Source: Candidatus Omnitrophota bacterium
GTDB taxonomy: Bacteria > Omnitrophota > Gorgyraeia > Gygaellales > Profunditerraquicolaceae
Direction of reading: 5' to 3'
Length of the DNA: 64,000 bases
NCBI GenBank assembly: GCA_020058085.1
Contig: JAGVER010000014.1
Location: forward strand, 33,747-97,746
The first letter of the stretch is position 1, and every line of letters starts with the position of its first letter. The notes beneath the pieces were generated by a model. The model was not told where the DNA came from. It ran no database searches and was given only the letters and a program-made list of their open reading frames with translations. The translations under genes and the position numbers were made by a program. This document shows, in pieces, positions 37,498 through 40,304 of this stretch.

Positions 37498-38571
37498 TTA
37501 ATCACTGACAAATATATTGTTAGGTAACAGGTCTAATTTCTGAAAACGCTGAAAGAATAAGGGATAATATCTTATTGTCGGCTTAAGGCTACCCACTACT
37601 TTATCGTTTTCCATTTTCTCAAAACGGAAAGTAAATAAATCATTGAAGAGGATTTCATTATTATCCAGCCCCCTTACTTCGGTAATATAGGTAACCTTGC
37701 GGCTGCCATCCCGTACTCTCTCTAAATGCACGATTACATTAATAGCCGAGGCAATTAATTTTCTCGATTCTAAGATTGGGATATTCATCCCCGACATTAA
37801 GACCATAGTCTCCAGACGCGCCACTACATCCTTAGGGGAATTCCCGTGCACAACTCCTATGGTCCCGGAATGCCCCGTAGCCATAGCCTGAAACATGTTT
37901 ATTGCTTCTTCTCCCCGGACCTCTCCGACAATGATACGATCAGGAGCCATACGTAAGGAGTTAGAAATTAAATCTTTCAAGCTAACCCCGCCCTTACCAT
38001 CTTCGTCCGGTGTTCTTGTTTCCATAGAAATGTAGTTCTCCTGCGTGAACCTTAATTCCGCGGCATCTTCAATAGTAACCACTCTCTCGTGGGGAGCGAA
38101 ATAATTAGAGAGCATTTGCAAAAGAGTAGTCTTACCCGTACTTGTTCCTCCGGAAAATATCATATTTATCTTACCCTTAATACAAGCAATTAAAAAATCT
38201 GCTGCCTTCTGAGTCAAGGTATCATTAGCAATTAAATCCTGAAGCGTACCTATCTGTTTAGAAAATTTCCTGAAGGTTACTGCTGTCCCGAAACGAGATA
38301 CCGGAGCCATAATCATATTCACACGCGTGCCATCTTCAAGACAAACATCACCATAATAAATATCGTTACCTACGCGCTTGCCCACAGCGCGGAAAAAATT
38401 TCCTATAGTCCTGACCAGATCTTCCTCGCCAGAAAAGACAACATCGCTTAGGGCTTTTTTACCATCTCTCTCTACAAAAACTTTTTTAGGACCATTGACC
38501 ATAATTTCAGAAATTGCTGGGTCATCTATCAGTTTTTGCAGTGGACCTAAATCTAATTTATTACTCTCCAT
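37498..38571 (-). CDS. CpaF/TadA-like secretion or pilus-assembly ATPase (VirB11 superfamily), orphan
   Basis: [20 protein letters not shown] and Walker [15 protein letters not shown]. No other pilus genes nearby. Confidence 0.6.
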
Positions 38572-38622
38572 ACTAACCTCGCTTTCTATGCCAATTTAAT
38601 TTTCTTGTCAAAAAATTTAAAT

Positions 38623-38695
38623 GGGCGCTACAGGATTTGAACCCGTGGCCTTTTCCATGTCAAGGAAACGCTCTAACCAACTGAGCTAAGCGCCC
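38623..38695 (-). tRNA. tRNA-Val(GAC)
   Basis: Reverse complement GGGCGCTTAGCTCAGTTGGTTAGAGCG-TTTCC-TTGACAT-GGAAA...GGGTTCAAATCC...GCGCCC. Confidence 0.75.
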
Positions 38696-38703
38696 AAACT
38701 ATC

Positions 38704-38787
38704 ATGGGCAGGGAGGGAGTCGAACCCTCACGCTCTTACGAACGGGAGATTTTAAGTCTCCATTGTCTGCCATTCCAACACCTGCCC
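38704..38787 (-). tRNA. tRNA-Leu(TAA)
   Basis: Reverse complement GGGCAGG-TG-TTGGAATGGCAGACAA...GGAGA-CTTAAAA-TCTCC, a long variable arm, GGGTTCGACTCCCT and CCTGCCC. Confidence 0.75.
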
Positions 38788-38794
38788 AATTCTT

Positions 38795-39463
38795 CTAGGA
38801 ACAAAACGGAATGGTTGTTTTGCTTTTGCTCCAGCCCGCGTACGAATGCATACATTCTTGGGCTAATTTTATTTTTCTATCTAAACCAAAACAATTCTCA
38901 TAATAACAGTTTCTAGAAATTTCTTTAGCGGCCATTTTCCCGTATTTCAATACCCACAAATTAGCCCCATTCTTATGTATCTTGCCACGGACTTTTAATA
39001 AATTCTCAGCCACATTGTTTAACCAACTAATAAATTCACTAGATCCGGAATAAATTCTTAAACTCCACTGTTCTCTTTTATTCGAGGGATGAATCCATGC
39101 GCGAATGCAACCATCGCTATCAATTAGCCCTCTTAAAAAATCAACAAAAAATTTACTTGGCACATCTATTTTGCCTAAGGTAAGTGATTTGTTCGGTGTT
39201 AATCCTATTGATAAAAGAAATTCGTAAAAATTCCTATTTCCAATTTGGATATGAAAACATTTTTGTTTTTTACCATTATACTTAACACCGATTTGATTAG
39301 CAATACCAATCACAGTCTTTAGTTCTTGAAGAAAATTTTGATCTTTAGATGTTATATCAATATGCCTACCATCGGTACACAAACAGCCATCTGTCGTAAT
39401 CAACCCCACTAAATACCAAAGATTTGCGCCTACAATTTTTAATTCTTTTCGCTTTTGCGGCAT
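38795..39463 (-). CDS. free-standing double-motif LAGLIDADG homing endonuclease
   Basis: Two LAGLIDADG motifs, WYLVGLITTDGCL and FLRGLIDSDGCI. Start trimmed to MPQKRK (ATG at 39463), because the ORF-track version runs into tRNA-Cys. Flanked within 12 nt by intact tRNA genes. Confidence 0.7.
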   Translation of the reverse strand: MPQKRKELKIVGANLWYLVGLITTDGCLCTDGRHIDITSKDQNFLQELKTVIGIANQIGVKYNGKKQKCFHIQIGNRNFYEFLLSIGLTPNKSLTLGKIDVPSKFFVDFLRGLIDSDGCIRAWIHPSNKREQWSLRIYSGSSEFISWLNNVAENLLKVRGKIHKNGANLWVLKYGKMAAKEISRNCYYENCFGLDRKIKLAQECMHSYAGWSKSKTTIPFCS

Positions 39464-39474
39464 TTTTAATTCTA

Positions 39475-39546
39475 AGGCGACGAGCGGATTCGAACCGCTG
39501 AATAGCTCTTTTGCAGAGAGCTGCCTTACCACTTGGCTACGTCGCC
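39475..39546 (-). tRNA. tRNA-Cys(GCA)
   Basis: Reverse complement GGCGACGTAGCCAAGTGGTAAGGCA-GCTCT-CTGCAAA-AGAGC...GGTTCGAATCC...CGTCGCC. Confidence 0.75.
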
Positions 39547-39552
39547 AAACAT

Positions 39553-40092
39553 CTAAAGAACCTTGTTAACCTCCTTGATTATCGCCTCAATATCAGCCAA
39601 ACACCCCATACCAACGTCTCCACAGGCGAGTTTACCTTCTTGGGGGCCAATAAAAACATAGCCTAACTTTTTAAGTTTAGCAATATTATCCTGAGTAATT
39701 TTATTTTTATACATATTCTCGTTCATAGCCGGAGCGATTAAAACCGGGGCTCTGGTTGCGAGAATAATACAAGTCAATAAATCATCGCAAATTCCGGCGG
39801 CTATCTTAGCAATAATATTTGCTGTTGCTGGCGCAAGCAAAATTAAATCTGCTTTTTTGGCTAAAGATATGTGTTCTATCTCCCAAGTATCCACAAAATC
39901 AAAAAGCCCGCAATAAACCTTATTTCCGGAAAGGTTCTGGAAAACTATCGGCCTAATTAATTCTTCCGATTCTTTGGTCATCACTACAGTTACAGAACCA
40001 ATCTTCTCTTTAATCTGGCGCACGATATCACAAGATTTATAAATGGCGATACTCGCGCTAACCCCCAAAATAATATTCTTCTCTTTAACCAA
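39553..40092 (-). CDS. coaC: phosphopantothenoylcysteine decarboxylase-type flavoprotein (CoaC domain only)
   Basis: 179 aa with IILGVSASIAIYK, typical of the HFCD flavoprotein family. No CoaB domain is fused. Confidence 0.65.
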   Translation of the reverse strand: MVKEKNIILGVSASIAIYKSCDIVRQIKEKIGSVTVVMTKESEELIRPIVFQNLSGNKVYCGLFDFVDTWEIEHISLAKKADLILLAPATANIIAKIAAGICDDLLTCIILATRAPVLIAPAMNENMYKNKITQDNIAKLKKLGYVFIGPQEGKLACGDVGMGCLADIEAIIKEVNKVL

Positions 40093-40094
40093 TT

Positions 40095-40304
40095 TTACCC
40101 TTTGCCCTTAAGCTTCTTAGCCCGTACCCTGCCTTCAGTAATTTCATATAAGGCTATCGTAGAAGGCTTCAAGGCAGCATTGACATCTACGAGTTTAGGC
40201 TGGCCTTCGGCAATTTCAAGGGCTCTTTTTGCTGCCAAATTGACCAACTTATAAATCGACCCCTCACTCTTATCCAATAATCTTTCTCTATCAACATAAC
40301 CCAT
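40095..40304 (-). CDS. rpoZ: DNA-directed RNA polymerase subunit omega
   Basis: 69 aa with SIYKLVNLAAKRALEI. gmk-rpoZ synteny. Confidence 0.75.
   Translation of the reverse strand: MGYVDRERLLDKSEGSIYKLVNLAAKRALEIAEGQPKLVDVNAALKPSTIALYEITEGRVRAKKLKGKG

Follow-up and report, generated by a model that had tools for sequence, protein, structure and literature searches.

How does an endonuclease gene come to lie between two tRNA genes? The question is raised by a 64,000-nucleotide (nt) stretch of contig JAGVER010000014.1 from a Candidatus Omnitrophota bacterium (the window, by which we mean this stretch at its full length), where an open reading frame (ORF) for a LAGLIDADG endonuclease is placed between tRNA-Cys(GCA) and tRNA-Leu(UAA). 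An initial annotation had described an intron-less, free-standing double-LAGLIDADG homing endonuclease within a tRNA operon, and had named the relic of an intron-homing event and a domesticated nuclease as other possibilities. The core of that description is supported by the present analysis, since the fold and both catalytic aspartates are intact. The gene is under purifying selection and optional at its locus, is lost or decaying in some lineages, and occupies the same position in several phyla. From these comparisons, we consider it likely that the gene is selfish and functional, encoding a free-standing LAGLIDADG homing endonuclease and belonging to a family whose home is a few nucleotides 5' of tRNA-Leu.

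The minus-strand ORF begins with an ATG at 39463, ends with a TAG stop codon at 38797-38795 and has zero frameshifts; it thus is not the degenerate, frameshifted pseudogene that the initial annotation had allowed for. Both LAGLIDADG motifs, LVGLITTDG and LRGLIDSDG, were confirmed, in a protein of 222 amino acids (aa) plus the stop codon rather than 223 aa. In an alignment of 24 homologues, residues L21, D25 and G26 of motif 1 and R111, G112, I114, D115, D117 and G118 of motif 2 are invariant; besides both catalytic aspartates, about 60 further positions do not vary. A longer reading of 245 aa from a GTG at 39532, inside tRNA-Cys, was rejected as a read-through artefact, as the homologues all start with MPxKRK. 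Several database homologues are likewise mis-called, translated tRNA sequence having been added to them as N- or C-terminal tails.

A Pfam scan of the protein identified LAGLIDADG_3 (PF14528; E 1.7e-11, 44.6 bits, cut-off 22.5) and no helix-turn-helix (HTH), extra RNA-binding or Hint domain. By sequence, the PDB entry closest to it is I-Tsp061I (2dch, E 4e-7), an intron endonuclease from archaea. An AlphaFold2 model built with the 24 homologues as input (predicted local distance difference test, pLDDT, 68; predicted template modelling score, pTM, 0.64) contains the alpha-beta-beta-alpha-beta-beta-alpha unit twice. When this model was compared with the PDB using Foldseek, I-Tsp061I (2dch, E 3.6e-11), I-AniI and I-DmoI led the matches, which also included WhiA (3hyi) and bI3 maturase. 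By motifs, profile match and predicted fold, the enzyme is of the single-chain, two-motif LAGLIDADG type.

The gene stands free of any recognizable intron. Rfam covariance models scanned over 38000-40200 gave tRNAs only, with no group I intron even at E<=10, and the same outcome was obtained at the gathering score for 17 related loci with longer spacers, which bears out the intron-less status given initially. Both flanking tRNAs, tRNA-Cys and tRNA-Leu(TAA), were confirmed as complete by ARAGORN and Rfam, all on the minus strand. The spacers have the lengths first reported, i.e., 11 nt on the tRNA-Cys side and, on the tRNA-Leu side, 6 nt (ARAGORN) or 7 nt (Rfam; the value given initially). An ORF encoded within a group I intron was rejected because no ribozyme appeared in the scans, the spacers measure 11 and 6 nt, and nothing interrupts tRNA-Leu.

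The position next to tRNA-Leu is a property of the family and not of this genome only. A search of 5.8 billion proteins returned 820 homologues at E<=1e-3. The best 120 share 61-77% identity with the window protein, apart from one 100% entry; most of them have 219-222 aa and nearly all fall within about 20 aa of full length. An exhaustive profile search gave 5486 cluster representatives at E<=1e-3, of which 65 reach E<=1e-30. The closest proteins carry Candidatus Omnitrophota annotation. Scanning one genome per GTDB species gave 153 encoding stretches, from which 80 loci were retrieved (61 Omnitrophota, 19 other; designated below by L numbers). ARAGORN placed tRNA-Leu(UAA) downstream on the same strand in essentially all 80 loci and tRNA-Cys(GCA) upstream in most. 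Across about 80 loci, the distance from the endonuclease gene to tRNA-Leu(UAA) is 0-15 nt, or the two overlap. In 47 of the 61 Omnitrophota loci the stop codon precedes the tRNA, by a median of 8 nt, while in 14 of these 61 and in 12 of the 19 others the ORF has no stop before tRNA-Leu and reads into it. The upstream neighbour can be tRNA-Val (L010, L032, L045, L047), tRNA-Thr (L018) or absent (L006, L012, L062, L065), and the adjacency to tRNA-Leu(UAA) is kept at all of these loci. Loci labelled Patescibacteria, Elusimicrobia and Armatimonadota have the same arrangement, with proteins 43-51% identical to that of the window.

A preference for tRNA-Leu also extends to more distant proteins. Searching with P0230, which is 38% identical to the window protein, located a sister family, for which nine contigs were retrieved (L240-L248; labelled Chloroflexi, Margulisbacteria, Daviesbacteria or Patescibacteria, or unlabelled). 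At about 38% identity, the sister-family gene abuts or overlaps a tRNA-Leu gene in nine of nine loci, with anticodon CAG in eight and GAG in one. The gene is flanked by two different tRNA-Leu genes in L242 and L244. Among the best 150 representatives clustered at 50% identity, 29 end in a peptide translated from the first nucleotides of a tRNA-Leu gene. With the sister family included, the bacterial groups in which members occur carry six or more different labels. As a control, phage loci with distant LAGLIDADG_3 relatives were inspected, and a tRNA was present within 300 nt in only 2 of 78. Because a scan of viral contigs gave only such distant relatives (<=34% identity), seldom with a tRNA nearby, a phage origin of the family was rejected. 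One 197-kb IMG/VR contig (L086:4001-4725) encodes a 30%-identical LAGLIDADG relative whose match ends about 220 nt before a tRNA-Leu(UAA) on the same strand; this may be another case of the same arrangement, phage-borne or mis-binned. In the literature we found mitochondrial, rRNA-intron and phage cases only and no tRNA-Leu-flanking LAGLIDADG family, although coverage was incomplete and an earlier description is possible. The large cross-phylum family dedicated to the 5' flank of tRNA-Leu thus is apparently undescribed.

To see how often the site is occupied, loci have to be collected independently of the endonuclease. A metagenome scan seeded on CoaC, and therefore blind to the endonuclease, recovered 16 Omnitrophota-type loci spanning coaC to tRNA-Leu, all sharing yicC-gmk-rpoZ-coaC-tRNA-thrS-infC synteny. 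The endonuclease and any trace of it are missing in 14 of them, where the Cys-Leu spacers measure 25-321 nt, and one locus (L190) has an intact gene. In the remaining one (L167, 717-866), a 150-nt Cys-Leu spacer keeps the last ~40 codons (query residues 177-216) with 57.5% identity and E 2e-13; lying beside tRNA-Leu, this remnant is evidently a 5'-deletion relic. Relatives with the same gene order and no ORF therefore exist, as needed for the spacer comparison proposed in the initial annotation. Between empty L160 and occupied L005, homology extends through tRNA-Cys and about 100 nt of spacer, is lost, and resumes exactly at tRNA-Leu +1. Other copies carry damage. In L059 (1475-2160), a frameshift splits the match into two high-scoring segment pairs, with stops in the original frame, by which signs this is a decaying copy. 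In L048 (4549-4715), the ORF contains an in-frame, GC-rich insertion of ~167 nt with 27-nt terminal inverted repeats (89% complementary) that looks like a miniature inverted-repeat transposable element (MITE).

Where the gene is intact, it is constrained. The ratio of nonsynonymous to synonymous substitution rates (dN/dS) was 0.06-0.28 in 16 of 19 close pairs, these being the pairs with unsaturated dS. Its history agrees only weakly with that of its neighbours. In a congruence test on pairwise identities of the endonuclease and four flanking genes at 34 loci, the flanking genes correlated with each other at rho 0.64-0.86, whereas the endonuclease correlated with them at only 0.33-0.52. By flanking genes, L011 and L013 come closest to the window (74-91% identity), yet their endonucleases are only 64-66% identical to its own, and the most similar endonucleases (L001-L003, 70-71%) are found in more distant genomes. 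A neighbour-joining tree has two main clades, Patescibacteria and Omnitrophota, with the Elusimicrobia and Armatimonadota copies nested within a basal Omnitrophota group. This nesting indicates transfer of the endonuclease gene across phyla into the same site.

Fragments of tRNA genes next to the endonuclease gene give a possible record of such arrivals. Directly upstream of the start, tRNA-Leu 5' fragments covering position 1 to position 20-28 are present in L001, L009, L010, L018, L023, L032 and L047, and in L009, L018 and L023 the start codon itself is the ATG of the D-loop sequence GGAATGGCA. A fuzzy fragment pattern with two errors was too permissive (451 background matches), and an exact pattern was used instead; within 70 nt of the start it occurs in five loci (L009, L010, L018, L023, L047), as against 0.024 expected by chance. 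On the endonuclease tree, the fragment-bearing loci fall on six or more separate branches. Every tRNA-Leu fragment differs in sequence type from the intact tRNA-Leu downstream, e.g., a GGGCAAG-type fragment accompanies a GCCGGGG-type gene. A search for fragments of each locus's own tRNAs found almost nothing. Since the fragments appear only when all tRNA types are used in the search, they are of foreign type. Upstream of sister-family genes, a search for tRNA-Leu fragments found none.

Pieces of other tRNAs occur as well. Fragments of tRNA-Cys 3' ends precede the endonuclease gene in L002, L011 and L055. The empty locus L175 (4801-4840) has a 40-nt tRNA-Cys 3'-half fragment (tRNA positions 33-72) that matches the tRNA-Cys of L057 perfectly, lies downstream of an intact tRNA-Cys and ends 1 nt before tRNA-Leu; it looks like the scar of an earlier rearrangement at the site. 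In L047 (3436-3810), two extra tRNA-Val 3' ends (21-24 nt, 100% identical) are embedded in tandem repeats of ~180 nt, located after tRNA-Val and before the endonuclease gene.

The tRNA-Leu gene itself also differs between empty and occupied loci. Comparing empty L166 with occupied L022, identity is 97% for tRNA-Cys and 93% for tRNA-Val, and 76% for tRNA-Leu; for L167 and L036 the values are 92%, 92% and 72%. Where the closest empty and occupied loci share a tRNA-Leu type (L160/L005 and L161/L011, 94-95% identical), the two genes differ at, among other sites, D-loop positions ~20-21, the place at which the fragments stop. Over the 34 loci, similarity in the first 27 nt of tRNA-Leu did not follow the flank phylogeny (rho -0.05, p 0.77), with values of 0.22 (p 0.03) for tRNA-Cys and 0.37 (p 0.004) for tRNA-Val. 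As a hypothesis that we hold tentatively and at somewhat less than even weight, the cleavage target may lie inside the tRNA-Leu gene, on the 3' side of the D-arm. The broader expectation of the initial annotation, a target in a tRNA spacer or a tRNA gene, is supported as part of the core reading, with gene-less relatives keeping the same gene order. Mantel-type correlations of tRNA-Leu with the endonuclease, for the whole tRNA and for its segments, were weak or null, which leaves simple co-inheritance or co-transfer of both unsupported globally.

These observations can be accommodated in a scheme of intronless homing. The endonuclease would cut alleles that lack the gene, most likely within tRNA-Leu itself, around positions 20-28 (3' side of the D-arm). 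With a gene-bearing chromosome as the template for repair, the endonuclease gene would be copied together with adjoining tRNA-Leu sequence (co-conversion), and the tRNA-Leu allele linked to the endonuclease would escape cutting through differences in its D-loop or D-stem. Illegitimate joining at the left side of the break would leave the 5' piece of the old tRNA-Leu upstream of the incoming gene.

The protein would have to be made from within a tRNA operon. The spacer from tRNA-Cys to the ATG contains no promoter-like site, and the scanned region as a whole contained three such sites against 5.3 in shuffled background. Among the consensus matches, one lies within the endonuclease ORF and one within tRNA-Leu; the sole terminator-like site of the region lies within coaC. 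The 11-nt spacer of the window is too short for a promoter or a Shine-Dalgarno sequence, and in most loci only 5-17 nt separate tRNA-Cys from the ATG, again with no Shine-Dalgarno sequence. Because no promoter of its own was found, the endonuclease gene is probably transcribed with the coaC/tRNA operon. The short gaps on both sides suggest that its mRNA is freed by tRNA end-processing and is nearly leaderless, its ends being made by 3' maturation of tRNA-Cys and by RNase P at tRNA-Leu. Where the ORF enters tRNA-Leu, RNase P may leave a non-stop mRNA, which may keep the level of the nuclease low.

Taken to its full extent, this scheme describes a phylum-spanning superfamily specialised on tRNA-Leu genes (UAA, CAG and GAG). 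Its members would recognise the DNA of the class-II D-arm, an endonuclease-plus-tRNA-Leu cassette would overwrite the resident allele, tRNA processing would punctuate the mRNA, and ORFs that enter the tRNA would limit expression. We offer this extension as a conjecture, a little less probable than the D-arm target on its own. If true, the cassette would be a natural gene drive on an essential tRNA gene.

Several points weigh against the homing interpretation or its target. Confidence in the structural model is moderate (pLDDT 68), and the prevalence estimate is based on 16 loci only. The target is deduced only from seven scarred loci and a small number of D-loop polymorphisms, at naturally variable positions. 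The endonuclease-linked allele of L035 has the same D-arm as empty-site alleles, and tRNA-Leu identity did not follow endonuclease identity (rho 0.16, partial 0.05, p 0.29; D-arm alone 0.09). A gene long resident by vertical descent and serving the host would likewise account for the deep split between Omnitrophota and Patescibacteria together with strong purifying selection.

That last point leads to the strongest competing explanation, a domesticated LAGLIDADG protein with a host function linked to tRNA-Leu, such as a regulator or a maturase-like chaperone acting on the gene or the precursor RNA, inherited vertically with some losses. Its favourable evidence consists of the low dN/dS (0.06-0.28), the more than 60 invariant residues in 24 homologues, the strict co-location with tRNA-Leu over phyla and isoacceptors, the frequent overlap of ORF and tRNA, which implies obligate co-transcription, the major clades that follow host phyla, and the presence of WhiA and bI3 maturase among the structural neighbours. 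However, a gene with a host function sits poorly with absence from 14 of 16 syntenic relatives and a deletion relic in one more, with frameshifted and MITE-interrupted copies, with the poor congruence with flanking genes, and with tRNA-fragment scars beside the gene. WhiA offers a direct comparison. It has a C-terminal HTH, its catalytic acidic residues are gone, and its conservation within its lineages is universal. The model of the window protein has the double LAGLIDADG fold of WhiA (3hyi), but the protein has no HTH or extra RNA-binding domain, and the family keeps both catalytic aspartates invariant and is patchy (present in one or two of the 16 syntenic relatives). A WhiA-like domesticated protein was rejected on these grounds, with LAGLIDADG_3 as the only Pfam domain. 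One JGI record labels a homologue of the window endonuclease 'WhiA'. Constraint combined with an optional locus, decayed copies and the same site across phyla fits a homing life cycle better than domestication. The patchy distribution and the decayed copies thus speak against the domesticated nuclease suggested in the initial annotation, and we regard a host function as unlikely.

Another explanation treats the gene as a passive passenger, i.e., an endonuclease gene that was formerly mobile, has become inactive and is kept only by linkage to an essential tRNA gene. The decayed copies in L059, L048 and L167 agree with this, and nuclease activity is a prediction from the sequence. Yet an inactive gene would not keep a dN/dS well under 1 in every estimable close pair, invariant catalytic and many other residues, and nearly full length in almost all of the best 120 homologues, which makes passive linkage improbable.

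Finally, tRNA-Leu(UAA) is a classic bacterial and plastid group I intron host, and the introns of tRNA-Leu use an anticodon-loop site. To the suggestion that the gene is the relic of such an intron, with the ribozyme lost and the intron ORF stranded beside the tRNA, we give hardly any credence, even though the nearest solved relatives I-Tsp061I and I-DmoI are intron-encoded: no group I intron was detected by Rfam in 38000-40200 (E<=10) or in the 17 related loci (gathering score), the spacers leave room of 11 and 6 nt only, the gene lies outside an uninterrupted tRNA at every locus, the scars stop at tRNA positions 20-28 and not at the anticodon-loop intron site, and the sister family adjoins tRNA-Leu(CAG) or tRNA-Leu(GAG), which to our knowledge are not intron hosts.

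With a selfish homing endonuclease gene as the preferred explanation, the surrounding features can be described (Table 1). The gene order yicC-gmk-rpoZ-coaC-tRNAs-thrS-infC is conserved in Omnitrophota loci, in which tRNA-Val(GAC) is kept too, and short spacers of the AATTAAA type are also common among homologous loci. The adjacency of tRNA-Cys and tRNA-Leu(UAA) is an old one; E. coli shows the same pairing in glyW-cysT-leuZ, with a cysT-leuZ spacer of 12 nt.

Table 1. Features of the tRNA cluster and endonuclease gene, in window coordinates, with the basis of each assignment. The Rfam tRNA gathering score is 29.
Feature	Position	Strand	Basis
LAGLIDADG endonuclease gene, 222 aa + stop	38795..39463	minus	ORF, Pfam, PDB sequence match, AlphaFold2/Foldseek, 820 homologues
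LAGLIDADG motif 1, LVGLITTDG, residues 18-26, catalytic Asp25	39386..39412	minus	read from sequence
LAGLIDADG motif 2, LRGLIDSDG, residues 110-118, catalytic Asp117	39110..39136	minus	read from sequence
tRNA-Cys(GCA), upstream of endonuclease gene	39475..39546	minus	ARAGORN; Rfam tRNA 68.9 bits
tRNA-Leu(UAA), downstream of endonuclease gene, proposed target carrier	38704..38788	minus	ARAGORN; Rfam tRNA 50.6 bits
tRNA-Val(GAC), third gene of tRNA cluster	38621..38696	minus	ARAGORN; Rfam tRNA 72.4 bits
11-nt A/T-rich spacer TAGAATTAAAA, tRNA-Cys to ATG	39464..39474	minus	sequence
6-nt spacer, stop codon to tRNA-Leu	38789..38794	minus	ARAGORN (Rfam: 7 nt)
coaC-like flavoprotein gene, ends 6 nt before tRNA-Cys	39553..40092	minus	Pfam Flavoprotein

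Two further features of the neighbourhood were recorded. A 357-aa gene for a T2SSE-family secretion ATPase (37498-38571, minus strand) lies between tRNA-Val and thrS in the window and is absent there in syntenic Omnitrophota loci. In the first ~25 nt after tRNA-Cys, a hairpin-forming palindrome, GAATTTTGC-NNNN-GCAAAATTC, occurs in the empty loci L159, L160, L163, L165 and L177, and also in L001 and L023; it may serve as a signal for processing or termination.

Work on free-standing homing endonucleases is extensive for phages and organelles and sparse for bacterial chromosomes. The family described here provides hundreds of natural variants at one defined site by an essential conserved gene, where empty sites, relics and scars can be compared. 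It opens questions on the long persistence of a selfish nuclease in cells, on the turnover of tRNA alleles and on expression within a tRNA operon, and it is a potential new source of compact meganucleases with tRNA-Leu gene targets. For annotation, ORFs beside tRNA-Leu in Omnitrophota, Patescibacteria, Chloroflexi and others become recognisable as one element family.

Among known systems, I-Tsp061I (2dch) and I-DmoI resemble the window endonuclease in being single chains of about 200 aa with two motifs and an acidic catalytic residue in each, and in having a target in a highly conserved stable-RNA gene, which is here proposed. These archaeal enzymes are encoded inside rRNA introns, whereas the window gene lies outside an uninterrupted tRNA, and identity is only about 21%. 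In Patescibacteria, also known as the candidate phyla radiation (CPR), three reports place LAGLIDADG genes inside 16S and 23S rRNA insertions (PMC8172020, PMC7143001, PMC11809585) and, as far as consulted, contain no mention of a tRNA-flanking family. The CPR enzymes share with the present family the superfamily, uncultured hosts that include Patescibacteria, and the parasitism of stable-RNA genes; they differ in that the rRNA insertions are removed from the transcript, while a gene beside tRNA-Leu needs no splicing.

The nearest functional analogue of the window endonuclease would be SegB of phage T4, a free-standing GIY-YIG homing endonuclease encoded in the T4 tRNA gene cluster (PMC2330249). 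The site it recognises contains a conserved tRNA motif, the T-psi-C stem-loop, and the enzyme drives the inheritance of segB and of neighbouring tRNA genes by relatives lacking SegB (PMC2330249). Like segB, the window gene is free-standing between tRNA genes, and the mechanism of SegB, intronless homing with co-conversion, is the one we infer here. Unlike SegB, a GIY-YIG enzyme of phages found at a single locus in T-even phages, the window family is of the LAGLIDADG type, resides in bacterial chromosomes and occupies hundreds of loci in several phyla. Its proposed tRNA element, deduced from sequence comparison, is the D-arm of tRNA-Leu instead of the T-arm. A free-standing homing endonuclease with intronless homing is thus a kind already known, and what appears to be new is a LAGLIDADG family dedicated to tRNA-Leu.

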